A stretch of DNA of 32,000 bases from Bdellovibrionales bacterium. GTDB taxonomy: Bacteria > Bdellovibrionota > Bdellovibrionia > Bdellovibrionales > UBA1609. The stretch lies in the NCBI GenBank assembly GCA_965247685.1, contig OZ252021.1, positions 120,001 through 152,000 of the forward strand, given 5' to 3'. Each line of letters starts with the position of its first letter. The first letter of the stretch is position 1. The position numbers were made by a program, and so were the translations under genes. The notes under the pieces are model-generated. The model made no database searches, was not told the origin of the DNA, and worked only from the letters and a program-made list of their open reading frames with translations. This document shows positions 1 to 18,155 of the stretch, piece after piece.

Positions 1-143
1 TTATTTCTAATATTGATAAAAAGCTTTCTACATAGGTCTTTTGTGTAGGTTTGAGAAGGCAGTATAAACAAAACCACCATAGAAATGTAGAAGACTCTTT
101 TATATCTGTACTGAAAACTACTTTTTAATCCTTTAAATATCAT
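1..143 (-). CDS. 5' end (47 codons) of a further ankyrin-family paralog; the gene body lies beyond the left window edge
   Basis: Bases 1-143 are near-identical to 2906-3048, the 5' end of ORF 466..3048. The minus strand reads MIFKGLKSSFQYRYKRVFYISMVVLFILPSQTYTKDLCRKLFINIRN from the ATG at 141-143. Confidence 0.75.
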   Translation of the reverse strand, partial: MIFKGLKSSFQYRYKRVFYISMVVLFILPSQTYTKDLCRKLFINIRN

Positions 144-465
144 CCCATTAAATCCTCTAATGCATTATTAAATATAAAAGGTTTTTATAATTGTTAAATG
201 TCATTCCAATTAACTCCTGTTAGAGACGAGCTATATGAAAAAAAACTACTTTTATTTATGTAAAGATAAACTATCACGATGCACTGAAAATATCCATCAA
301 ACAAGAGTGAAGTGTGTAATTTTTACACTTACCTTAGAATACTCATCCCACTCGCCTAAGTTGGTTTACGGTACAGGCAACATTAAAAACGTACTGTTTA
401 GTTTAGTTTTCTTTTGTTGAATTTTTCATTACCATTAGATGAGCTATGGTTAAAGAATTTCAGTC
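144..465. repeat. Inter-paralog spacer repeat, copy 1 (upstream region of the edge-truncated paralog, downstream of ORF 466..3048)
   Basis: Near-identical to 3049..3359. Shorter copies occur at 5694..5872 and 10239..10306. Contains an A8 tract (238-245) and the 23S-like piece at 332-390. Confidence 0.85.
332..390 (-). other. 23S rRNA-derived fragment (59 nt) inside spacer repeat copy 1
   Basis: Manual alignment to 16425..16483 inside the genuine 23S gene gives 54/59 identical, same orientation. Four of the five differences are G->A on the + strand. Confidence 0.8.
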
Positions 466-3048
466 TCATTTCAAAAGCTGAATGAATTTCTCACGATATT
501 CACCATTAGTGTTCTTCTTTGCAAAATCAAGAGCCATATGACCATATTTATTTTTAGAATTTTTATTAGCTCCACTCTCTACCAATAACTCTACGATTTT
601 TAGATACCCATGCCTTGCTGCATACATGAGGGCTGTCTGACCATTTTTACTTTTGGCATTTTTATTAGCTCCACTCTCCACCAATAACTCCGCGATGTCT
701 AGATTTCCTTTCCCTGCTGCGTACATGAGTGCTGTATAACCATTTATATTTGTGGCATCTATATCAGCTCCCCGAGCCAGCAAAAAATCCACAAATTCTC
801 GATCCCCTTCCTCTGCTGCTTGAATGAGAGCTGTCTCACCCCATCTATTTTTGGCATCTATATCAGCTCCTCTAGCCAGCAAAAAATCCACAAATTCTCG
901 ATCCCCTTTCTTTGCTGCGTACATGAGGGCTGTCTCACTAAAAGAACTTCTAGCATTTATATCCAATAATATCTTAAATTTAGAATTTAAAACCTCCTCT
1001 ATCTGCTGTTCGTTTTCAGAAAAAAATACTTGAGAAATCTGCCTTATAAACTCTCTCTTATAAAATACTCTTACATCTTTCCAATTACTCATCTCTCCTA
1101 TAATAACTTGTTGCTCTTTTTTTGAAAATAATTCTAACTGAGTAGATAAAAAATCTAAATCTACATCGACTCTCTTTCCTAGCTCTAAATTGATTCTCTT
1201 TTTTAGCTCCCATTGAATTAAAGTAAATAAAGTCAACTTTCTGACTCTAGAATCAATATCTTGACCCTCTATTTTGTCCTTTAAATAACTTTTAACATAT
1301 TCTGAAGTGATATTGAGTCCTTCGATTTCTTTTAAGGATAACAAGTTATTTAAAAACTTTATCTGATCCTCTGTCTCATTGGATTTTCCTAACGAAAGTA
1401 CAGGTTCATATAAACCTCTAACACTTAATTCTTCAGACGCTGTTTGTGGAATATATATTTCACCCGGTCTAATCGTAATATTATCCAGTCCCCTGCCTTC
1501 TTCCTCTAGCACCAACATATCTAATCCCTGATCAGCTCTTGAATACTCATCTGAATACTCATTTTCAAATGGGTATTCATTAGGATGAGGTTGAAACTTT
1601 CTTAAACGAACTTTTAACTGAGGTAAAATCTTCTCCTTAAGATAGCCCCTTGTTATATCATCATTAGAGATGTCATTATGATCTCCTACATTTTTAGGGA
1701 GACCTAGTTTATATCCTAATTCCTTTAAACTCAGTCTTATACCTTCTAGTGTAGGAAGAAGTAAATGATTGGGAAAGTCTTGTATCTTATCAACAAAAGC
1801 TACCTGCTCCTTTTCTCCTCTTTCATTTTCAGCAGAACCCAAGACTACTGCAATATGCCCTGAAGATTTATAATTCTCACCTGTCAAAGTAAAATAAAGA
1901 TAATTAGGATCTAAAGCTTTCTCAAAATAATATTCCGTCGCGCAATCTCCACTCAAACAGGATCTAAATGGGGACTCTTGTATGGATAAGCTTCTCAATC
2001 GAAGAGTTTTCCTATAACCTTCCTTATAGGGCTGATTTTTTATATCATCTTCTATTCTTAGCAGTTGTGTAGAAATATCTTCATTAGGTTTAACATTTAA
2101 GGATTCTCTTAACTCAGAAAAATGCCCTTCAAATCCTAACTCAATCGCTATAACATTTCTTTCTGATAAAATTTTACGAACAGCATCTATTCTCTCTATT
2201 GGATTTTTACTTTTCAAAGAAGCCTCATAAAGAGGATTTCCAAAACCTGCTGTATCCACTAAATCCACCATAGCTTGTGATATGTATCGAACATCTCTTT
2301 TATCTGCCAATAACTGATCTCTTGCTTCATTTAAAATCTTATAGAATCCTATGATTTTTTCCCTATAAGGAATGGAAGAGTTTTCTATAAATTTCAAATT
2401 TTCTTCGCTGATGAATTTCTTAAAATAATCTTTAAAACCTTCCATTTGTTTTTGTTTCCACTCTTTTCGTTTTTGCCCTTTTAAATTGGAAGATGGTGGA
2501 GCTTCTTGAAAATCAAGTATTTTATGCCAAAATCCAATATTGGCTTCTATTTGAAATAAATTATTTCTTCGCCTCTTAGATGATTTTTTAAAGTTTTGGA
2601 TAAATTGAATCAAACTTTGAGATTGTTCATATTCTTTAATAGAAATTTCCAGAATCTGCTCTCGAAGAGATGGTTTAGAAAGTTCAGGATATTTTTCTAA
2701 AATTTGAAACAGAAGAGTGAAATATTTGTCTTTATTTATTTTTTCATTAAAATCTCCAAACCAATTTTTTAAATATAATTCCAATAAATCTGCTTGTTTC
2801 TCTCCAAGAAATAAACCTTGAGTCATCGCTTCTGCAAAGGCTCTTGGAGTCTTAGGTTTTGTCTTAGATTTTGTATCAGCTCTTACTGATTGTCCAGAAA
2901 AGACTTTATTTCTAATATTGATAAAAAGCTTTCTACATAGGTCTTTTGTGTAGGTTTGAGAAGGCAGTATAAGCAAAACCACCATAGAAATGTAGAAGAC
3001 TCTTTTATATCTGTACTGAAAACTACTTTTTAATCCTTTAAATATCAT
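466..3048 (-). CDS. Ankyrin-repeat protein (860 aa): hydrophobic N-terminal signal/anchor, ~650-aa uncharacterised body, 5 C-terminal ANK repeats
   Basis: Long ORF with ATG at 3046-3048 and GAGGA 9 nt upstream. The N-terminus RYKRVFYISMVVLLILPSQ is hydrophobic. The C-terminus holds five 33-aa units with the ANK consensus (G-TALMYAA--G----V-LL---GA--N). Confidence 0.9.
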   Translation of the reverse strand: MIFKGLKSSFQYRYKRVFYISMVVLLILPSQTYTKDLCRKLFINIRNKVFSGQSVRADTKSKTKPKTPRAFAEAMTQGLFLGEKQADLLELYLKNWFGDFNEKINKDKYFTLLFQILEKYPELSKPSLREQILEISIKEYEQSQSLIQFIQNFKKSSKRRRNNLFQIEANIGFWHKILDFQEAPPSSNLKGQKRKEWKQKQMEGFKDYFKKFISEENLKFIENSSIPYREKIIGFYKILNEARDQLLADKRDVRYISQAMVDLVDTAGFGNPLYEASLKSKNPIERIDAVRKILSERNVIAIELGFEGHFSELRESLNVKPNEDISTQLLRIEDDIKNQPYKEGYRKTLRLRSLSIQESPFRSCLSGDCATEYYFEKALDPNYLYFTLTGENYKSSGHIAVVLGSAENERGEKEQVAFVDKIQDFPNHLLLPTLEGIRLSLKELGYKLGLPKNVGDHNDISNDDITRGYLKEKILPQLKVRLRKFQPHPNEYPFENEYSDEYSRADQGLDMLVLEEEGRGLDNITIRPGEIYIPQTASEELSVRGLYEPVLSLGKSNETEDQIKFLNNLLSLKEIEGLNITSEYVKSYLKDKIEGQDIDSRVRKLTLFTLIQWELKKRINLELGKRVDVDLDFLSTQLELFSKKEQQVIIGEMSNWKDVRVFYKREFIRQISQVFFSENEQQIEEVLNSKFKILLDINARSSFSETALMYAAKKGDREFVDFLLARGADIDAKNRWGETALIQAAEEGDREFVDFLLARGADIDATNINGYTALMYAAGKGNLDIAELLVESGANKNAKSKNGQTALMYAARHGYLKIVELLVESGANKNSKNKYGHMALDFAKKNTNGEYREKFIQLLK
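514..963 (-). repeat. Five in-frame 99-nt (33-aa) ankyrin modules; adjacent pairs are highly similar at the DNA level
   Basis: 99-nt periodicity. ggcatctatatcagctcc... starts at 754 and again at 853. ttttattagctccactctc... starts at 561 and again at 660. Confidence 0.85.
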
Positions 3049-3359
3049 CCCATTAAATCCTCTAATGCATTATTAAATATAAAAGGTTTTTATAATTGTT
3101 AAATGTCATTCCAATTAACTCCTGTTAGAGACGAGCTATATGAAAAAAAACTACTTTCATTTATGTAAAGATAAACTATCACGATGCACTGAAAATATCC
3201 ATCAAACGAGAGTGAAGTGTATAATTTTTACACTCACCTTAGAATACTCATCCCACTCGCCCGAGAGGATTTACGGTACAGGCAACATTAAAAACGTACT
3301 GTTTAGTTTTATTTTGTTGAATTACCATTGGATGAGCCTATGGTTAAAGAATTTCAGTC
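3049..3359. repeat. Inter-paralog spacer repeat, copy 2
   Basis: Near-identical to 144..465, including the A8 tract (3143-3150) and the 23S-like piece. Confidence 0.85.
3237..3295 (-). other. 23S rRNA-derived fragment (59 nt) inside spacer repeat copy 2
   Basis: Manual alignment to 16425..16483 gives 51/59 identical. It is more diverged than copy 1 (ttgg -> agga in the middle). Confidence 0.75.
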
Positions 3360-5693
3360 TCATTTCAAGAGCTGAATGAGCTCCTCACGATGTTCACTAT
3401 TAGGGTTCTGCCTTGCAAAATCAAGAGCCGTCTTTCCATCTTTATTTCTGATTTTTTTATTAGCTCCACTCTTCACCAATAACTCCACGAGTTCTAGGTG
3501 CCCTTTCCTTGCTGCAGATATGAGAACCGTATCACGATCATAATACTTATCTGTGGCATCTATATTAGCTCCATTCTTCAACAACAACTCCATGAGTTCT
3601 AGATGCCCATGCCTTGCTGCATGCACAAGAGCCGTATAACCAAATTCATCTGTGGCATTTATATCTAATAATATCTTGAAGCTGGAATTTAAAGCCCTCT
3701 CTATTTGCTGTTCATTTTCAGAAAAAAATACTTGAGAAATCTGCCTTATAAACTCTCTCTTATAAGATACTCTTACATCTTTCCAATTACTCATTTCTCC
3801 TATAATAAATTGCTGATCTTCGAGTGAAAAGAATCCTAACTGAGTAGATAAAAACTCTAAATCTACACTAATGTCCTTTTCTCGATTCCATTGAATTAAA
3901 GTAAATAAAGCCAACTTTCTGATTTTAAAATCAATATCTTTATCCTTTATTTTGTCCCTTAAATAACTTTCAACATATTCTGAAGTGATATTGAATTCTT
4001 CGATTTCTTTTAAGGATAACAAGTTATTTAAAAACTTTATCTGATCTTCTGCCTTATTAGATTTTTCTAACGAAAGTACGGGTTCATATAAACCTCTAGC
4101 ACTTAATGCTTTAGATGCTGTTTGTGGAATATATATTTCACCCGGTCTAATCGTAATATTATCTAGTCTCCTGCCTTCTCCCTCTAACACCAATATATCT
4201 AATCCCTTATTAGCTCTTGAATGCCCACTGTAAAATGGGTATTCGTTAGGAAGAGGTTGAAACTTGCTTAAATGAACATTTAACCAAGGTAAAACCTTCT
4301 CCTCAAGATAGCCCCTTGTTATATCATCATTGGAGATACCATCATTCTCTCCTACATCTTTAGGAAGACCTAGTTTATATCCTAATTCCTCTAAACTCAA
4401 TCTTATACCTTCTAGTGTAGGAAGAAGTAAATGATTGGGAATGTTTTGTATTTTATCGACAAAAGCTACCTGCATCTTTTTTCCTCTTTCATTTTCAGCA
4501 GAACCCAAGACTACTGCAATATGCCCTGAAGACTTATGATCCTTACCTGTAAAAGTAAAATAAAGATAATTAGGATCTAAAGCTTTCTTAAAATAAAATA
4601 CCATCGCACAATCTCCACTCAAACAGGATCTAAATGAGGACTCTTGTATGGATAAGCTTCTCAATCGAAGAGTTTTTCTATAACCTTCCTTATAGGGCTG
4701 ATTTTTTATATCATTTTCTATTCTTAGCAGTTGTGTAGAAACATCTCCATTAGATTTAACATTTAAGGATTCTCTTAACTCAGCAAAATGCCCTTCAAAT
4801 CCTAACTCAATCGCTATAACATTTCTTTCTGATAAAATTTTACGAACAGCATCTATTTTCTCTATTGGATTTTTACTTTTCAAAGAAGCCTCATAAAGAG
4901 AATTTCCAAAACCTGCTGTATCCACTAAATCCACCATAGCTTGTGATATGTATCGAACATCTCTTTTATCTGCCAATAACTTATCTCTTGCTTGTTTTAA
5001 AATCTTATAGAATCCTATAACTTTTTCCCTATAAGGAGTGGAAGAGTTTTCTATAAATTTCAAATTTTCTTCATTGATGAATTTATTAAAATAATTTTTA
5101 AAATCTTCCATTTGTTTTTCTTTCCACTTTTTTCGTTCTTGTCCTTTTAAGTTGGAAGGTAATGAAGTTGTTGGAAAATCAAGTATTTTATACCAAAATC
5201 CAATATTGGCTTCTATTTGAAATAAATTATTTCTTCGCCTCTTAGATGATTTTTTAAAGTTTTGGATAAATTGAATCAAACTTTGAGATTGCTCATATTC
5301 TTTAATAGAAATTTCCAGAATCTGCTCTCGAAGAGATGGTTTAGAAAGTTCAGGATATTTTTCTAAAACTTGAAACAGAAGAATGAAATTTGTGTATTTA
5401 TCTATTTTTTCATTAAAATCTCCAAACCAATTTTTTAAATATAATTCCAATAAATCTGCTTTTTTCTCTCCAAGAAATAAACCTTGAGTCATCGCTTCTG
5501 CAAAGGCTGTTGGAATCTCAGGGTTTGTATCAGCTCTTACTGGTTGTCCAAAAAAGATTTTGTTCTTAAAAAGCTTTCTACATAGGTTTTTTGTGTAGGT
5601 TTGAGAAGGTAGTACAAGCAAAACCACCATAGAAATGTAGAAGACCCTTTTATATCTGTACTGAAAACTACTTTTTAATCCTTTAAATATCAT
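3360..5693 (-). CDS. Ankyrin-repeat protein paralog (777 aa), 3 C-terminal ANK repeats
   Basis: Long ORF with ATG at 5691-5693. The first ~690 aa are co-linear with ORF 466..3048, with long identical runs such as KEYEQSQSLIQFIQNFKKSSKRRRNNLFQIEANIGFW. The C-terminal ANK region differs in copy number and sequence. Confidence 0.9.
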   Translation of the reverse strand: MIFKGLKSSFQYRYKRVFYISMVVLLVLPSQTYTKNLCRKLFKNKIFFGQPVRADTNPEIPTAFAEAMTQGLFLGEKKADLLELYLKNWFGDFNEKIDKYTNFILLFQVLEKYPELSKPSLREQILEISIKEYEQSQSLIQFIQNFKKSSKRRRNNLFQIEANIGFWYKILDFPTTSLPSNLKGQERKKWKEKQMEDFKNYFNKFINEENLKFIENSSTPYREKVIGFYKILKQARDKLLADKRDVRYISQAMVDLVDTAGFGNSLYEASLKSKNPIEKIDAVRKILSERNVIAIELGFEGHFAELRESLNVKSNGDVSTQLLRIENDIKNQPYKEGYRKTLRLRSLSIQESSFRSCLSGDCAMVFYFKKALDPNYLYFTFTGKDHKSSGHIAVVLGSAENERGKKMQVAFVDKIQNIPNHLLLPTLEGIRLSLEELGYKLGLPKDVGENDGISNDDITRGYLEEKVLPWLNVHLSKFQPLPNEYPFYSGHSRANKGLDILVLEGEGRRLDNITIRPGEIYIPQTASKALSARGLYEPVLSLEKSNKAEDQIKFLNNLLSLKEIEEFNITSEYVESYLRDKIKDKDIDFKIRKLALFTLIQWNREKDISVDLEFLSTQLGFFSLEDQQFIIGEMSNWKDVRVSYKREFIRQISQVFFSENEQQIERALNSSFKILLDINATDEFGYTALVHAARHGHLELMELLLKNGANIDATDKYYDRDTVLISAARKGHLELVELLVKSGANKKIRNKDGKTALDFARQNPNSEHREELIQLLK

Positions 5694-5872
5694 CTCATTA
5701 AATCCTCTAATGCATTATTAAATATGAAAGGTTTTTATAATTGTTAAATGTCATTCCAATTAACTCCTGTTAGAGACAGCTATATGAAAAAAACTGTTTT
5801 CATTTATGTAAAGATAAACTATCACGATGCACTGAAAATATCCATCAAACAAGAGTGAAGTGTGTAATTTTT
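5694..5872. repeat. Inter-paralog spacer repeat, copy 3 (truncated; lacks the 23S-like piece)
   Basis: Matches 144-~325 and 3049-~3230 and has an A7 tract instead of A8. Homology stops at gtgtgtaattttt, just before where the 23S-like piece starts in the other copies. Confidence 0.8.
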
Positions 5873-5931
5873 TCAAATTTAACATACTTTGTTGACAAGT
5901 ATATTTACTTCAGTGTTTACTCCATGAAACT

Positions 5932-8900
5932 ATGTTATGTAAAAACCTACAGCAGATCTTAAAAGTAGGGATTTCTTTAAATTTTCAAAAACGTATATTT
6001 GAATATAAAAAAATTCTTTATTTAATAATTTTACTTTCAATTCACTCTGTTTCTGCTAGGCCTGATCCTGGGATGGATGGCTGTTTTCCTCCTTACTGTA
6101 TACAAAATCCTTCCATTATTCCTAAAGGAAAATCGAATGAAGAAATTCTCAACCCACCATTAAATGTTAAATATAAACCACAGGCATTCCAGATACGGGG
6201 ACAGGTACTCCAGATGGTTATTATGCAAGAGTTTCTGAAAGACCCAAATACATATTTGGCTTTCGCGTTTGCTGCAAGAGGAAAATATTCCCGTTTTGAA
6301 AACGTCCAAAAAAATTTTGGATTTAAAAAGATCTTGGATCTTGGACGAAATGTAAATGTAAAATTAAAATTCCCATGGAGCCAATGGGTCGAAGTTTCGA
6401 TAGATATTCCGCTTAAATCGCAAACGAATAGAATAGTTTTTACAAACGTTCAACAAGATTTAGAGAATTTCAAGCGTGTGACTCATGCAACAGCTCAAGT
6501 ATTGATGGAATGTAAAGACAACATGCAGAACTGCCCTATTTTTCGTAATTTATTTAAAGAAATAAATGATCCACATGAGCTTCAAGAGTTACAAGAGGGC
6601 TGGAGCAAAGCTATTGCTTTTGCAAATAAAAACGGCATCAATGTTTTTCAAAACAATACTATAGAAGACTTGCAATTTATGTACCCTTTAGAATCAAACT
6701 TGGTTCAAACGCTGAACAATTCTGAAGATATAAAGAAACAAACAGAAGCTTTTAAAGACTTTATAGTATTACAAGAAGAGGATCGAGTGGCTCACATTCA
6801 AGCAAATGACCCTTTCTACACTGGAAAAGATGCAACTACTTTACATTTGCAAAATAAATGGAACGAATATCAAACACAACTAGAGCAGATCAAACAACAG
6901 CAACTCATTCCTAATCAAACAACAGAAGAATTAGTCCATCTTTCCAACGAAGAGACACGAACTTCAAAGGCTTTAGAGAGAATAGATACAGCAAAAAAAC
7001 TATATAAGAATGAGCAACTTTCTAACGGAATTATAGCAGTTGCAGGAGCTACCAAAGCTGTTGGTCAAGTTTTGGGTGTACCTAAAGAAATAATCCAATT
7101 AGCTGACATTGTTATTATTAAGACGCAAATAATTAGTACAGTGAACAAGATGATTATTAGTGGTGCTGTAGATCCAACCGGCATTACAGCCATAGCTATA
7201 GGGTTGAGTGCCTTACTAAGAATTATATCTAATACTCCATCTCCAGAACAATTGATGAAGGAGGTATTTGATGACATTCAAAAAAAACTGGAGACTGTAT
7301 TAGTAAATCAAGAACAGATACTTGCCGAGTTAGAGTATATGAAAGATCTTATGCAGAAAAACCACCGTGAAATTATTGACAACCTTGGTGTTATTCAAAA
7401 GAGGTTACATCAAATTGAAACATCTATGCAGTTTAACTTTGAGGCTGTATTCAAAGAGTTTGACACCCAAACATTTAAAGAGATAATGGGAAGAGCTTAC
7501 GGTTTAAGAACAAATTTATCTAAACCGATTCATCAGCAGCAAGTATGCCTTGAAAAAGATGAAAATAATCAATGTGTGATGCTATATAACCCATCCTTTG
7601 AGGACATTAGGGAGAGTGGACGTCTCTTGGGAGAGATATATAAAAATTGGGAAAATATCTCCCAGATGGATATCGAAAAAGACTTTTCCAAGCTTTCAAA
7701 AGAAGACATCGAAAAGTACATAGAAAATCCCTCTATAGAGGCTAGACTGCCTTTTTTATCGTCAATGGTTCATTGGCTGAACAGTGCGGAAGATCGACTG
7801 AACACTTTATCTGTTGGCAGAAAAATACGTACTCAGATACCATCTGATTTGATTTTTGGAAAGAATATTCCTGAGCCTCCTAAAGAAATTGCTCTTCCTT
7901 CCTATCAAGATAAAATACTATCTGAATATATTGAGCTGGCTAGCTTACTCCCGCCAGAATCAGATGATCTTGGAGGTATGACTCATGATGATCATGTTGA
8001 TAAAATGTGCCAAAGACTTTCATCTATTGAATCTTTGTCAAAAACAATGAGGGAAAATTTGCAAAAAGCCTGGGCAACTTATTATTTTTATTCAATAACA
8101 ATATATAATAACGTAGTAAATTATTTCGATGATCTACCTAGAAAAGAACTAAAATTGAAAGCAAATAAAAGTAAAAAAGAGCTTCGAAATGAGAAGGATG
8201 CTCATGAGAGTAAAGAAGAGCTTCGAAATGAGAAAGATGCTCATGAGAAGGATGCTCTTGAAAAAATACCACTAAAATCATTCATATCTACTGCAAACAG
8301 GGTTTATTTTCATGAGCATCCTTCTCATCAGCATCCTAAGCCTCCTAATATATCAAGATATTTTTCCAATTTTTCAAGCATCTTAAATGATGTCCTAGAT
8401 GATATGCTTAATAATACAATGAGTGATAGGGATATGTATATACATGGATACATAAAGCAAGTTCCATACAGAGAGCGTAAGTGTATAAGACAGATTATGG
8501 TGCAAAAGAAGATTGAGGTGCCGCAGGATAAGATATTACTACCACCACCATGTAAGGATTTTACCCTAGGTGATCTGATTATGTCCAGAGGAAGTGGCCC
8601 TGACGGGGGTTACGGAGGTGGCCCTGGCCCTGAAGGGGGTTACGTAAGTAGCCCAAAGTGTCGGAAGACTATCACACTACAACACATTTTCGCACCACGA
8701 ACAAGGTGGAAAAGCCACTGTTATGAGTGGGAAAAGGTTGGAACAGGTCCTATAAAATATAGGATAGAAAATGATAGAGAATCTTTTAAAAAAGCCCAAA
8801 TAGAAGAATGGAGATGGGTTCCAACCTATATTTACACTCATATTATAAAGGAACTGGATAAAAAGGATTTAATTGCAGAATGGATGCGCGCCAAACTTGC

Positions 8901-9825
8901 TGTAGATACAATGGCTCACATTGGCTACGGTGAACAGCTTTCTTCGCATCCTAAATTATCTATGTTAAATAAATTAATCAAAACGCTTCCTGCCCGTAGA
9001 GAACCATCTTCAAAAGAGCCAGGTCATATATATCAATTTTTTAAAGATATAGAAGCTATACGCAAACACTCTGATTCTCCATTTTTAATTAATTATGCTC
9101 ATGCAACAGCAAGTAGGATAAATTTATATAGAGATGAATCCAATCAGGTATCTCCTTTAACCTTTATTAATCCTATTTTATTCACTGGATGTGAGACAGA
9201 AGATTTTAGGGTGAAATCTACTATATTTAACACTCACAGTATAATGAATTTATTAAATTCTTCATCACAAAAAATAGAGAAGAAATTTTCCCATTATATG
9301 AAAAAAGAAAAGTCTCCACAATTTACTTCCTCAGATGAGTTGATTGAATTTTTACAAACAATATTAGAAGAAGCTGTTGAAAATAAGAAGCCATTTGATG
9401 TATTCACATATATGAAGGAGCAGAATTTACACTTTCTTCTAGACTTAAATAAACAAAACAGTAATCAAAGGCGGATCAAACCTTTTTGTAGTCTATCTTT
9501 TGTAGAACTGTCATCACAAAAATCACAAAAATATATCTATCACTCTTTTATGAAAATTATTCATCCTGTTGTACAAATGTCTTTTAAAGAGTGGCAGAGG
9601 AACAGAACATTCGGGGTCGGCGATTGGGAACAACAAGTTATGGAACATTGGGCATTAAAAGAAGGAATTTCAGTGCCATCAATGTTTTATCTCCCTTTAC
9701 CCTCTGAAGATTTGTGGAAAAATCAACCAATAGGATTAGGGATTCCTGAATTGCGCCGTCAAGCTCTTTTTAAAGCAGGGTTTTACGAACACCTTAAACC
9801 TAAATATTGTTCATTAGTACAATAG
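5932..9825 (+). CDS. Large orphan protein (1297 aa), probably secreted or membrane-associated
   Basis: Uninterrupted 3.9-kb ORF. Signal-like segment KKILYLIILLSIHSVSA-RPD. Long hydrophobic stretch around GIIAVAGATKAVGQVLG...GAVDPTGITAIAIGLSALLRII. Heptad-like charged regions, a 13-aa tandem repeat and a Gly-rich GPDGGYGGGPGPEGGY patch. I recognise no catalytic motif. Confidence 0.8.
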   Translation: MLCKNLQQILKVGISLNFQKRIFEYKKILYLIILLSIHSVSARPDPGMDGCFPPYCIQNPSIIPKGKSNEEILNPPLNVKYKPQAFQIRGQVLQMVIMQEFLKDPNTYLAFAFAARGKYSRFENVQKNFGFKKILDLGRNVNVKLKFPWSQWVEVSIDIPLKSQTNRIVFTNVQQDLENFKRVTHATAQVLMECKDNMQNCPIFRNLFKEINDPHELQELQEGWSKAIAFANKNGINVFQNNTIEDLQFMYPLESNLVQTLNNSEDIKKQTEAFKDFIVLQEEDRVAHIQANDPFYTGKDATTLHLQNKWNEYQTQLEQIKQQQLIPNQTTEELVHLSNEETRTSKALERIDTAKKLYKNEQLSNGIIAVAGATKAVGQVLGVPKEIIQLADIVIIKTQIISTVNKMIISGAVDPTGITAIAIGLSALLRIISNTPSPEQLMKEVFDDIQKKLETVLVNQEQILAELEYMKDLMQKNHREIIDNLGVIQKRLHQIETSMQFNFEAVFKEFDTQTFKEIMGRAYGLRTNLSKPIHQQQVCLEKDENNQCVMLYNPSFEDIRESGRLLGEIYKNWENISQMDIEKDFSKLSKEDIEKYIENPSIEARLPFLSSMVHWLNSAEDRLNTLSVGRKIRTQIPSDLIFGKNIPEPPKEIALPSYQDKILSEYIELASLLPPESDDLGGMTHDDHVDKMCQRLSSIESLSKTMRENLQKAWATYYFYSITIYNNVVNYFDDLPRKELKLKANKSKKELRNEKDAHESKEELRNEKDAHEKDALEKIPLKSFISTANRVYFHEHPSHQHPKPPNISRYFSNFSSILNDVLDDMLNNTMSDRDMYIHGYIKQVPYRERKCIRQIMVQKKIEVPQDKILLPPPCKDFTLGDLIMSRGSGPDGGYGGGPGPEGGYVSSPKCRKTITLQHIFAPRTRWKSHCYEWEKVGTGPIKYRIENDRESFKKAQIEEWRWVPTYIYTHIIKELDKKDLIAEWMRAKLAVDTMAHIGYGEQLSSHPKLSMLNKLIKTLPARREPSSKEPGHIYQFFKDIEAIRKHSDSPFLINYAHATASRINLYRDESNQVSPLTFINPILFTGCETEDFRVKSTIFNTHSIMNLLNSSSQKIEKKFSHYMKKEKSPQFTSSDELIEFLQTILEEAVENKKPFDVFTYMKEQNLHFLLDLNKQNSNQRRIKPFCSLSFVELSSQKSQKYIYHSFMKIIHPVVQMSFKEWQRNRTFGVGDWEQQVMEHWALKEGISVPSMFYLPLPSEDLWKNQPIGLGIPELRRQALFKAGFYEHLKPKYCSLVQ
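8179..8262 (+). repeat. In-frame 39-nt tandem repeat (2 units plus a partial unit) inside the 1297-aa ORF
   Basis: gagcttcgaaatgaga[a/g]gatgctcatgag occurs at 8179 and 8218, then a partial aaggatgctcttgaa. It encodes ELRNEKDAHE(SKE)ELRNEKDAHEKDALE. Confidence 0.85.
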
Positions 9826-10087
9826 GAAGGATATCTGTAATAGATTTAATTTCAAGAATATCTGATAAATTGAAAATTCCAATTTTATAATAAATTAAAA
9901 TTTAAAAGTAAGTCATATAAACTGAAAACCCATATGGCTTACACAAAGAAATTATACTTATCTATTTGGTCATCAATAAACTTATTTTTAGATTTTTTTA
10001 AAAACTTATCCATCATCATCGTCTTTGCTATTCTGAGATACCACAGAACTATCATCTGAAACTTTCTCTTCTTCAAGGGTAGGCATT

Positions 10088-10238
10088 CACTTCTGCAAAG
10101 GCTGTTGGAGTCTTAGGTTTTACCTCAACCTTTACTATCTCTGAAGGAGGCTGACTTTTCAGATCTTTTCTTACTGGTTCTCTAGAAAAGACTTTATTTC
10201 TAATACTGAAAACTAATTTTTAATCCTTTAAATATCAT
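10088..10238 (-). pseudogene. Decayed 5' relic of an ankyrin-family paralog
   Basis: The minus strand from the ATG at 10236-10238 reads MIFKGLKISFQY then a stop. An internal deletion joins it to ...RNKVFS...KPKTPTAFAE, matching residues ~46-73 of the intact paralogs. Homology then ends. Confidence 0.75.
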
Positions 10239-10306
10239 CCCATTAAATCCTCTAATGCATTATTAAAGGTTTTTATAATTGTTAAAGACGAGCTATATGA
10301 AAAAAA
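10239..10306. repeat. Inter-paralog spacer repeat, copy 4 (short, with internal deletions)
   Basis: cccattaaatcctctaatgcattattaaa..ggtttttataattgttaaa..gacgagctatatgaaaaaaa matches copies 1-3 apart from two deletions. Confidence 0.7.
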
Positions 10307-10623
10307 GCGTTTTAAAAATAAAGTATTTTTCAACAGTTTTTTATTAATTTCTTAAAAAGAATTCATCTCTATTTTTTGAACATAATTATTATACTACTTC
10401 ATTTTTCATCAAGGTATTTCTTTTATTGTAAATTTCACACACTTTCAACAGTCAATAAAGCTTTTATGTAAAAAGTATAATTGACTCTAAGGATTTTCCG
10501 AATTAAGAATCAAGGAGGGGCTAGTGTGGTTGAAAGTTGAGCAGAGAACTTCAAATCTACGTACATTGACTCTATTTCAGTCACGGCAACAATAAGAAAA
10601 CTGTATTCTATAGTAGAAAGAAA

Positions 10624-11781
10624 ATGAGAAAATTCTTAAAAAAATATATTTACATAATCATTTTTATGAGCATCTCTTACGCTTTTTCAAACGAAGAATA
10701 TATTAGTTATCCAGAACTGACAAAATTTGTGCAAGATCTTAACATAAAAACTAAACCAGATTATGTAAAATTTTTTCTAGAAAATGGAAAGGAGTTAGGC
10801 CTTCCTCCTCTCAACCAAATTCCACGTATATATTCCGAAAACTGGAGAAGCTGGCATGAATTCTTTGGATTGTCAGAAAAAAAATATAACAAACATATTC
10901 AAGATCTTTCAAACAGTGATCAACCTTCAAAACAAAACTTTTCTACTATTGATGAAATAATAGAACAGACAACAGCTCAGCTTGATGAAGAAGGGACAAC
11001 TCAGCCAAAACTTCAGAAACCTTCGGAATCCATAAAAACACCAACTAAAGAAAATCCCAATTATCAAATCAAAAGAAGAAAAAATTTTCTCACTTATGAA
11101 GAACTTAAAAAGCTTATTCGATCTCAGGGAGATATTAGAACTGGAAAAACCTATCATGAATGGCGTAAACAAAATCAAGGAATAGCTCCGGCTAATCCAA
11201 GTAAATTCTACCTTCAATGGAAAGGGTGGAAAGAATTCTTAGGTGATCAATTCAGACATCTCTCTTATAAAAGATTAATGGAAGAAGTACGAAAACGAGA
11301 TATCCAAACTGCTATGCAATACAAATATAATTACAAAGATATTAAAGGAGCTCCTTCCAACCCTGAGCGATTTTATCCTGAATGGATAAGTTGGAGAGAT
11401 TTCCATGGTACTCAAATCTCACGTCCCACTTATAAAGAATTAAAAGAAGGAGTACAAAGACTAAACTTTCAATCGATGGAAGAGTATCAAGAAAGACGCA
11501 AAGAAATTCATCCAGGGGCTCCTTCCCGCCCTGATACAATTTATCCTGAATGGGAGGGTTCGAAAATTTTCTTTAATATTCAAATCTCACGTCCCACTTA
11601 TAAAGAATTAAAAGAAGGAGTACAAAGACTAAACTTTCAATCGGTGACAGAGTACAGAAGAAGACGCAAAGAAATTCATAAAGGAGCTCCTTACAACCCT
11701 AATCAGTTTTATCCTGACGAATGGGAAGGATGGAATATTTTTTTAAATAAATCAAAATGCGAGCAGGTATTTAATCAATAG
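10624..11781 (+). CDS. Secreted repeat protein (385 aa): Sec-type signal peptide plus 5 copies of a ~55-aa Trp/Pro-rich module
   Basis: N-terminus MRKFLKKYIYIIIFMSISYAFS-NEE. The module is repeated, e.g. ISRPTYKELKEGVQRLNFQS-EY--RRKEIH-GAP--P---YP-EWEGW-IF. Near-identical 168-nt DNA repeats start at 11413 and 11581. Confidence 0.85.
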   Translation: MRKFLKKYIYIIIFMSISYAFSNEEYISYPELTKFVQDLNIKTKPDYVKFFLENGKELGLPPLNQIPRIYSENWRSWHEFFGLSEKKYNKHIQDLSNSDQPSKQNFSTIDEIIEQTTAQLDEEGTTQPKLQKPSESIKTPTKENPNYQIKRRKNFLTYEELKKLIRSQGDIRTGKTYHEWRKQNQGIAPANPSKFYLQWKGWKEFLGDQFRHLSYKRLMEEVRKRDIQTAMQYKYNYKDIKGAPSNPERFYPEWISWRDFHGTQISRPTYKELKEGVQRLNFQSMEEYQERRKEIHPGAPSRPDTIYPEWEGSKIFFNIQISRPTYKELKEGVQRLNFQSVTEYRRRRKEIHKGAPYNPNQFYPDEWEGWNIFLNKSKCEQVFNQ

Positions 11782-11816
11782 AAAGAAAATCAGAAACCCT
11801 GTATTTTGTAATAAAA

Positions 11817-11955
11817 ATGAGAAATTTCTTAAAAAAATATATTTACATAATCATTTTTATAGGCATCCCCTACGCTTTTTCAGACGAAGAACCTATTGTT
11901 TTTAGTTATTTAGAACTGCAAAAATCAGTGCAAGATTTGAGCACAAAAACTAAAA
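11817..11955 (+). pseudogene. 5' stub of a third paralog of the secreted repeat-protein family
   Basis: MRNFLKKYIYIIIFIGIPYAFSDEE...LQKSVQDLSTKTK parallels the first ~45 codons of 10624.. and 12289... Homology ends at ~11955 and the next duplication unit begins at 11996. Confidence 0.7.
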
Positions 11956-11995
11956 CATCATCTTTTTTTCTTTTAACATTCTTTCGAATTGAACT

Positions 11996-13362
11996 AACAG
12001 TTTTTTATTAATTTCTTAAAAAGAATTCATCTCTATTTTTTGAACATAATTATTATACTGCTTCATTTTTCATCAAAGTATTTCTTTTATTGTAAATTAT
12101 CACACGCTTTCAACAGTCAATAAAGCTTTTATGTAAAAAGTATAATTGACTCTAAGGATTTTCCGAATTAAGAATCAAGGAGGGGCTAGTGTGGTTGAAA
12201 GTTGAGCAGAGAACTTCAAATCTACGTACATTGACTCTATTTCAGTCACGGCAACAATAAGAAAACTGTATTCTATAGTAGAAGGAAAATGAGAAAATTC
12301 TTAAAAAAATATATTTACATAATCATTTTTATGAGCATCTCTTACGCTTTTTCAGACGAAGAATATATTAGTTATCCAGAACTGACAAAACTTGTGCAAG
12401 GTCTTCACATGACAACTAAACCAGATTATGTAAAATTTTTTCGAGAAAATGGAAAGGAGTTAGACCTTCCTCCTTTCAACCAAATTCCACGTATATATTC
12501 CGAAAACTGGGGAAGCTGGTATGAATTCTTTGGATTGTCAGAAAAAGAATATAACAAACACATTCAAGATCTTTCAAACAGTGATCAACCTTCAAAACAA
12601 AACTTTTCTACTGTTGATGAAACAATAGAACAGATAACAGCTCAGCTTGATGAAGAAGGGATAGCTCAGCCAAAACCTCAGAAACCTTCGGAATCTATAA
12701 AAACACCAACTAAAGAACATCCTAATTATCGAACCCCAAAAAAAAAAGAAATAAAAATAAATAAGGGAATAAGAAATTTTCTCACTTATGAAGAAGCAAA
12801 AGCAAGAACACAAGAACTAGGTATTCCATCAGGGAGAGTTTACAAAAAGAGATATTCAGAAATTGACGGAGCACCTTCTAACCCTGATAGAACTTATCGT
12901 AAAGAATGGAAAGGTTGGAGAGATTTCCATGGTACTCAAATCTCACGTCCCACTTATAAAGAATTAAAAGAAGGAGTACAAAGACTAAACTTTCAATCGA
13001 GGGTAGAGTATCAAGAAAGACGCAAAGAAATTCATCCAGGGGCTCCTGCTCATCCTGAGACATTTTATCCTGATGAATGGGAAGGTTGGGGAATTTTCTT
13101 TAATATTCAAATCTCACGTCCCACTTATAAAGAATTAAAAGAAGGAGCACAAAGACTAAACTTTAAATCGATGAAAGAGTATCGAGAAGGACGCGAAAAA
13201 ATTCATCCAGGGGCTCCTGCCAACCCTGATCGATTTTACGCTGAATGGGAGGGTGCGGTAATTTTTTTAAATAAATCAAAATGCGAGCAGGTACTTAATC
13301 AATAGAAAGAAAATCAGAAACCCTGTATTTTGTAATAAAAATGAGAAATTTCTCAAAAAAAT
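11996..13362 (+). repeat. Tandem segmental duplication, unit 2
   Basis: See unit 1. It ends in a ~22-nt remnant of yet another paralog start (atgagaaatttctcaaaaaaa at 13341). Confidence 0.85.
12289..13305 (+). CDS. Secreted repeat protein paralog (338 aa): signal peptide plus 4 copies of the ~55-aa module
   Basis: N-terminus MRKFLKKYIYIIIFMSISYAFS-DEE, with GAAGGA before the ATG. Module DNA repeats start at 12937 and 13108 (171-nt period). Confidence 0.85.
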   Translation: MRKFLKKYIYIIIFMSISYAFSDEEYISYPELTKLVQGLHMTTKPDYVKFFRENGKELDLPPFNQIPRIYSENWGSWYEFFGLSEKEYNKHIQDLSNSDQPSKQNFSTVDETIEQITAQLDEEGIAQPKPQKPSESIKTPTKEHPNYRTPKKKEIKINKGIRNFLTYEEAKARTQELGIPSGRVYKKRYSEIDGAPSNPDRTYRKEWKGWRDFHGTQISRPTYKELKEGVQRLNFQSRVEYQERRKEIHPGAPAHPETFYPDEWEGWGIFFNIQISRPTYKELKEGAQRLNFKSMKEYREGREKIHPGAPANPDRFYAEWEGAVIFLNKSKCEQVLNQ

Positions 13363-13424
13363 AAGTAGTCACATCAAGCCTACAAGTAAAAGAGATTAAA
13401 AACTAATGCAAACTTCCATTATAA

Positions 13425-14988: not shown

Positions 14989-15000
14989 TTCTTAATTAAA

Positions 15001-15114
<114 letters not shown>

Positions 15115-15164
15115 AAAGGCGTGTTTCTGTTAAAAGCAAAAATCAAAAAAGGTGGGTATGATTT

Positions 15165-18155
<2,991 letters not shown>

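Follow-up and report, generated by a model that had tools for sequence, protein, structure and literature searches.

Leaders of r-protein operons contain autoregulatory sites that mimic rRNA, the L1, S8, L20, and S15 sites being examples, and in such sites a local rRNA helix is the binding site of the protein, the element lies in the 5' leader of an r-protein operon, and it is conserved. Short stretches of rRNA-like sequence can also arise as orphan rRNA fragments or pseudogenes, or as templated filler at the junctions of rearrangements, the latter being documented mainly in eukaryotes. For bacteria, the classes of junction that form without homologous recombination, along with template switching, have been summarized (bioRxiv 10.64898/2026.05.22.727201). 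Our literature searches returned nothing specific on filler templated by a 23S rRNA gene (rrl) in bacteria, or on a bacterial precedent for such an rRNA fragment. Here, we describe a piece of 23S rRNA sequence lying between ankyrin genes of an uncultured Bdellovibrionales-like bacterium and compare it with each of these systems. This piece is probably a non-functional patch of rDNA, ~62-65 nt long and derived from the organism's own 23S gene, that became fixed where a non-homologous tandem duplication of an ankyrin effector-like gene had left its seam, and that was then co-amplified.

Two 23S-derived pieces in an ankyrin gene array

The window (the whole 32,000-nt stretch of DNA that was analyzed) contains ankyrin paralogs (ANK genes) in tandem and, 10-16 kb away on the same strand, the 23S gene from which the pieces derive. 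In what follows, U denotes the region upstream of each ANK gene, D the 3' flank past the stop codon, and R the rRNA-derived piece. The features are as follows:

1..143, minus strand: ANK0, the start of a third paralog, cut off by the left end of the window; its translation, MIFKGLKSSFQYRYKRVFYISMVV..., matches the N-terminus of ANK1 as well as that of ANK2
144..331, minus strand: U region, copy A, upstream (5') of the next paralog; its homologues are copy B (3049-3236) and copy C (5694-5875)
332..393, minus strand: R-A, copy A of the rRNA-derived piece; 56/62 identity with rrl 16425-16486
394..465, minus strand: D region of unit A, from the ANK1 stop codon to R-A; shares 96.7% identity with its counterpart in unit B
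466..3048, minus strand: ANK1, 860 aa (ORF list; Pfam Ank families)
3234..3298, minus strand: R-B, copy B of the rRNA-derived piece; 55/65 identity with rrl 16422-16486
3299-3359, minus strand: D region of unit B, the homologue of 394..465, from which it differs by a 13-column indel
3360..5693, minus strand: ANK2, 777 aa (ORF list; Pfam Ank families); protein 76% identical to ANK1
5694..5875, minus strand: U region, copy C, preceding ANK2 in the window's first unit (from alignment); no R attached
15000..15114, minus strand: 5S rRNA gene (Rfam RF00001, 94.8 bits)
15164..18155, minus strand: full-length 23S rRNA gene, rrl (Rfam RF02541, 2807.9 bits, model 1-2925)
16422..16486, minus strand: donor segment inside the 23S gene (Rfam LSU model positions ~1629-1692)

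The initial annotation had aligned positions 332-390 to 16425-16483 in the same orientation with 54 of 59 positions identical, and this ungapped count was reproduced exactly; blastn within the window extends the match to 332-393 against 16425-16486 (90.3%, E ~1e-19) and detects R-B as well (E ~1e-14). The target lies in a genuine 23S gene, as had been claimed, with a match to Rfam LSU_rRNA_bacteria of 2808 bits at 18155..15164 on the minus strand, and the observation that four of the five differences are G>A holds for copy A when read on the plus strand. The core 22-mer CCTTAGAATACTCATCCCACTC is present in three exact copies in the window, at 332, 3237, and 16425, versus none in 100 dinucleotide-preserving shuffles, which argues against chance similarity, the first of two ways in which it had been proposed that the homology could prove illusory. 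These results confirm that the piece between the ankyrin genes is real 23S homology and that it had been correctly located. R-A lies 73 nt past the ANK1 stop codon and directly adjoins the upstream region of the next paralog, and R-B occupies the spacer that separates the stop of ANK2 from the start of ANK1. The minus strand carries the 23S gene, both copies of R, and the ANK genes alike, so that past each ANK stop codon R reads in rRNA sense, in agreement with the annotated placement on the ANK-coding strand.

When the 32-kb window was compared with itself, the two array spacers and rrl were the only places with R; its edges are sharp at both ends, and its homology to rrl extends over just 62-65 nt. 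An Rfam scan of window positions 1-6000 at a permissive E-value returned no LSU match, only chance-level matches, none of which lies over R. With 62-65 homologous nucleotides and no full-length or domain-sized LSU match, R was rejected as a functional 23S rRNA gene (RF02541).

The donor segment comprises the last ~60 nt of 23S domain III, up to the boundary between domains III and IV (Rfam alignment with structure line), and corresponds to approximately positions 1590-1650 of the E. coli 23S, give or take a few nt, in an alignment to the E. coli 23S gene. The rRNA operon itself is unlinked (window 15000-18155): the 23S and 5S genes have no 16S gene upstream, and pgk (phosphoglycerate kinase) is found there instead, at a distance of 340 nt. 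Three related Bdellovibrionales metagenome-assembled genomes (MAGs; L005, L007, and L011) likewise have no 16S within 1.7-3.8 kb upstream of the 23S. Unlinked rRNA operons have been associated with symbionts and genome reduction (PMC7761764).

Seam position, lineage origin, and surroundings of the piece

Read along the minus strand, the array proceeds from a unique flank through U (5875..5694), ANK2, D (3359..3299), R-B, U (3236..3049), ANK1, D (465..394), R-A, and U (331..144) to ANK0 (143..<1). The spacer at 3049-3359 is a 90%-identical repeat of that at 144-465 and has its own rRNA-like piece, and in both units D precedes R, so that R stands between the end of each unit and the start of the next. 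The three copies of U are 95-98% identical overall (A-B 97.9%, A-C 95.7%); their homology starts 0-2 nt from the 3' edge of R, and that of copy C ends there. No R was detected upstream of the first unit in the window, the flank at 5876-5990 aligning to rrl or to R no better than shuffles, of which 348 of 500 reached the observed score for rrl and 26 of 500 that for R. A degraded R before the first unit was rejected on the same grounds. R is absent from the outer flank of the array before the first unit, and the window ends before the flank after the last one. Since the homology of U starts at the 3' edge of R and the first unit is without R, R lies exactly on the repeat-unit seam. Duplication by homologous recombination between direct repeats, in an R-D-R arrangement, was considered and rejected, as no R-like sequence occurs upstream of U copy C.

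Comparison with the rrl genes of 12 related Bdellovibrionales MAGs places the origin of R within this lineage. A variable stretch in the 5' third of R reads GTTTTCAATGTCGCC in this rrl and GTTTTTAATGTTGCC in the pieces, while the relatives differ (e.g., GTTGTCAAAGTCGCC); R reproduces the variable stretch of this rrl, which the rrl of the 12 relatives do not, and it is therefore derived from the lineage's own gene. Over 62 nt, R-A differs from rrl at 6 positions and R-B at 9; five of these differences are common to both copies, one is private to A, and four are private to B, the two copies thus differing from each other at five positions. At rRNA-sense positions 15, 19, and 40, all of them shared differences, all or nearly all of the relatives' rrl have the state of this rrl, implying that the changes arose in the R pieces. 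Because A and B share derived substitutions, R was inserted once and drifted somewhat before the whole U-ANK-D-R unit was duplicated. The changes private to copy B are clustered, ACCAACTCAGG having become ATCCTCTCGGG, at positions where real 23S genes are invariant or nearly so, and, in rRNA sense, they show no AT bias (C>T, A>C, A>T, and A>G). As in an rDNA-derived relic, the fragments resemble their own rrl down to its lineage-specific positions, carry derived changes, and show 0 compensatory pairs. The G+C content of the segment is 45% in rrl, 42% in R-A, and 45% in R-B, as against 30% in the spacer and 34% in non-rRNA DNA; being far above the spacer in G+C, the piece is still compositionally 'young'.

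P0110, a protein identical to ANK1, is encoded on a 1,280,446-bp contig together with the paralogs P0001 and P0002. The N-terminal 650 aa of P0001 are 92% identical, and P0002 is at 75%; the N-termini of both differ from that of ANK0, so the genome contains at least five ANK paralogs. Among genome contigs scanned with the core 22-mer, 12 Bdellovibrionota/Bdellovibrionales MAGs gave one match each, in every case within the stretch that aligns to the window's 23S. The 23S genes of those 12 MAGs are 79-87% identical to that of the window; with identities of at most 87%, no close relative is present in the collection of genome contigs scanned, and a scan of genome contigs with the ANK N-terminal domain found no relative either. 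In three of three ANK loci of relatives (L013-L015), no rRNA-like DNA was found; one of these (L013) has four paralogs in tandem with spacers of 40-70 nt. Metagenome scans yielded 0 matches for a fragment-specific 26-mer and 0 for a 28-mer from U. R was also considered as a MITE or other mobile repeat and rejected, given that its copies occur only in the two array spacers and rrl, that metagenome matches number 0, and that the right arm of a putative inverted repeat is present in copy C without a left arm.

The ANK proteins have an N-terminal domain of ~650 aa (1099-3048 and 3800-5693, minus strand) with no Pfam match, and their ankyrin repeats are C-terminal. More than 100 homologues of this domain, at 28-47% identity, were found in other MAGs, and the named sources are Bdellovibrionales or Bdellovibrionaceae. 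It contains a conserved SCLSGDCA motif and is usually fused to ankyrin repeats, in some proteins to an FGE-sulfatase domain (PF03781). Towards the 3' end of ANK1 (530-965) lie 99-nt (33-aa) ankyrin units that are 72-80% identical to one another (e.g., 638-938 versus 539-839), which suggests, from the sequence, a recent internal repeat expansion that would account for ANK1 being longer than ANK2.

Other repeats and relics lie nearby. Divergent from ANK2 is a 1297-aa ORF on the plus strand (5932-9825) that has no Pfam match and includes an imperfect palindrome of ~100 nt (8236-8335, 74.5% self-complementary). Beyond this gene, at 10087-10306 (minus-strand sense), there is a truncated and internally deleted relic of an ANK 5' end together with the proximal ~100 nt of U; it is without R, and its homology stops at 10306. 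A second tandem duplication at 10332-13363 comprises ORFs 10624-11781 (385 aa) and 12289-13305 (338 aa), which are ~84% identical at the DNA level, have internal repeats of ~165 nt, and, from a reading of the sequence, an N-terminus that looks like a signal peptide; a Pfam INT_rpt (PF14882) match was obtained in the second ORF only. With the truncated ANK relic, the second tandem pair, and at least five ANK paralogs, the neighborhood is rearrangement-prone.

Folding, constraint, and alternative readings

R was mapped onto the 23S secondary structure, as had been recommended in the initial annotation. According to the Rfam structure line, R consists mostly of the 3' strands of long-range domain III helices, the 5' partners of which are situated hundreds of nucleotides upstream in the 23S; in R, these strands are without their partners, and the only local hairpins left are one of 2 bp and one of 4 bp. 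Folded alone, neither R-A (z +0.72) nor R-B (z +0.44) was more stable than its shuffles, and the same was true of the full spacer A (z +0.25). A longer segment, which starts at the stop codon, includes D and R, and takes in the first ~25 nt of U, gave z -1.23 for copy A and z -3.06 for copy B (3205-3364, minus strand), where one of 200 shuffles was as good and the predicted MFE was -39.4 kcal/mol. The value for copy B is a weak hint, from the folding model, that this segment could be a 3'-UTR hairpin that uses R.

Of the alternatives to a non-functional patch, the one that fares best starts from this hint, and we regard it as unlikely. It holds that R was co-opted into a 3'-UTR or intercistronic hairpin extending from the ANK stop to the first ~25 nt of U, which might stabilize the upstream mRNA or mark a processing site, the rRNA origin being incidental. 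Besides the fold of copy B, it can draw on the complementarity between GCUCAUC(C/U) in D and GGAUGAGU inside R, and on a predicted A/B consensus fold of the segment in which all 45 pairs are kept, eight of them differing between the copies on one side each and still pairing. Against this, the z scores of copy A and of the whole spacer are unremarkable, and an 8-bp complement between AT-rich stretches of 70 and 62 nt is, by our estimate, about what chance would provide. The proposed check for compensatory substitutions also came out negative, none of the 45 predicted pairs being compensatory, a comparison of two copies only that has almost no power. Between copies A and B, identity is 97.9% for U, 96.7% for D (plus the 13-column indel), 91.9% for R, and 91.9% for the coding sequences, with almost no power at n = 2 copies; within the spacer, R is the segment that differs most between the two. 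A scan for terminator-like and promoter-like consensus sites found none of either kind in the two spacers, and R was rejected as an intrinsic terminator for want of a terminator-like site in either spacer. The single terminator-like match in the scan lies on the plus strand inside ANK1.

Exaptation can also be stated more broadly, as R having been recruited with D as a long hairpin (an mRNA 3'-end, processing, or stability element) or as an rRNA-sense decoy tying expression of a host-directed family of ankyrin effectors to ribosome biogenesis. This would explain why R has been retained through repeated amplification; in this form too we judge exaptation improbable, slightly more so than the hairpin taken by itself.

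The decoy version was assessed separately; the initial annotation had offered a co-opted mimic of a ribosomal-protein or RNase recognition site as one of its two explanations. Here, R would act as a decoy or regulatory site for an r-protein, for an rRNA-modifying or -processing enzyme, or for the domain III 5' strands of nascent 23S, and would couple ANK expression to ribosome status. The transcribed strand of the ANK genes does carry R in rRNA sense, and the 26-nt core of R, GAGTGGGATGAGTATTCTAAGG, is unchanged together with its flank in both copies. However, the partner strands are missing for nearly all of the helices, R gives no fold signal above chance, and it has accumulated nine substitutions in 62 nt, among them changes at conserved single-stranded positions (GGUGAG -> GGCGAG). 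In addition, R is conserved less than the surrounding spacer, its changes show no compensation, its neighbors are ANK genes with no r-protein operon among them, and it is absent from the ANK arrays of the relatives. R was accordingly rejected as an r-protein autoregulatory mimic, in view of its mostly unpaired 3' strands and its ANK neighbors, and we consider any form of mimicry very improbable.

Slightly less credence still is due to a product of the plus strand across R, be it a small protein or an RNA antisense to the 23S. An ATG-started ORF does cross R in both copies (235-420, 61 aa; 3140-3379, 79 aa), and the N-terminal ~40 aa of the two are near-identical, but they are unequal in length, their C-termini are unrelated past the indel, and the changes private to B are non-synonymous (SPKLVYG versus SPERIYG). 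Copy C has no homologous ORF of 20 aa or more, a 1-nt deletion shifting the frame in our own reading of the sequence. The conservation of the ORFs does not exceed the 92-98% nucleotide identity of the spacer, and no promoter-like site was found on the plus strand there. The two ORFs are probably spurious. Least probable of all is an assembly chimera, the second failure that had been anticipated, in which the ANK repeat would have acquired rRNA reads by a wrong join when the MAG was assembled. Misassembly classically involves repeats and rRNA genes, and the assembly is that of an uncultured bacterium, but a chimera would be identical to rrl, yet R-A and R-B differ from it at 6/62 and 9/62 positions, with five shared derived changes and five differences between them, and each R is embedded in an otherwise colinear repeat unit.

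Formation route and comparison with known systems

The remaining explanation in the initial annotation, a relic of illegitimate recombination with the nearby rrl that was later co-amplified, is the one that agrees with the data on the rDNA patch: there are two diverged copies with shared changes, they derive from the organism's own rrl, their edges are sharp, they sit on the seam, and the first unit is without R. Two routes to this arrangement can be envisaged. In the first, template switching or end-joining at the first ANK duplication would have copied or captured ~62 nt from the co-oriented rrl as filler between D and U. In the second, a tandem duplication of ~13 kb, with breakpoints at rrl ~1670 on the left and at the end of D on the right, would have created the D|R seam, and a subsequent deletion of ~10 kb, from rrl ~1732 to the start of U, would have created the R|U seam and left just 62 nt. 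In either case, R would afterwards have drifted neutrally and been carried along whenever unequal crossing-over within the array amplified the unit anew. Both routes predict the sharp edges, the same-strand orientation, and a first unit not preceded by R; their predictions part at the sequence past the last unit, and they fit the present data equally well. Microhomology at the two switch points amounts to 0-3 nt, and a 13-nt similarity (11/13) near the R/U seam is no better than in shuffles, so that the mechanism of formation is inferred. Microhomology as the mediator of the switch from rrl to U was not supported, the local alignments being no better than shuffles.

The piece can be regarded as a molecular fossil that marks the repeat-unit seam, and this position implies that one non-homologous duplication founded the array and that the unit was then re-amplified. 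With five shared changes and one to four private ones, R also provides a small internal clock, and it documents short-range capture of rDNA during rearrangement in the small, AT-rich genome of an uncultured Bdellovibrionales-like bacterium. In practical terms, such scraps of rRNA can mislead rRNA-based read filtering, probe design, and annotation. R is in sum a neat evolutionary marker that is biologically ordinary, and it would raise a new biological question only if a functional reading were true.

Set beside the known systems, R shares with r-protein mimic sites an rRNA-like sequence in sense orientation in an untranslated region of an mRNA; unlike them, it contains no helix in full, is located 3' of an effector-like gene, and lacks conservation. 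The resemblance to non-homologous tandem-duplication junctions with templated filler is closer, in that R lies on the seam, its donor is ~10-16 kb away on the same strand, the junctions have 0-3 nt of microhomology, and no extended flanking repeat of the R-D-R type precedes the first unit, whereas, unlike in documented junction fillers, the event that formed R is old and can only be inferred. R is also like orphan rRNA fragments and pseudogenes, since it comes from its own rrl, is truncated at both ends, is decaying by substitution, and resides in a genome that is small (1.28 Mb) and AT-rich and whose rRNA operon is unlinked. It differs from the usual orphan fragments in being far shorter (62 nt), in having edges that are sharp rather than eroded, and in having been amplified within an array of protein genes.
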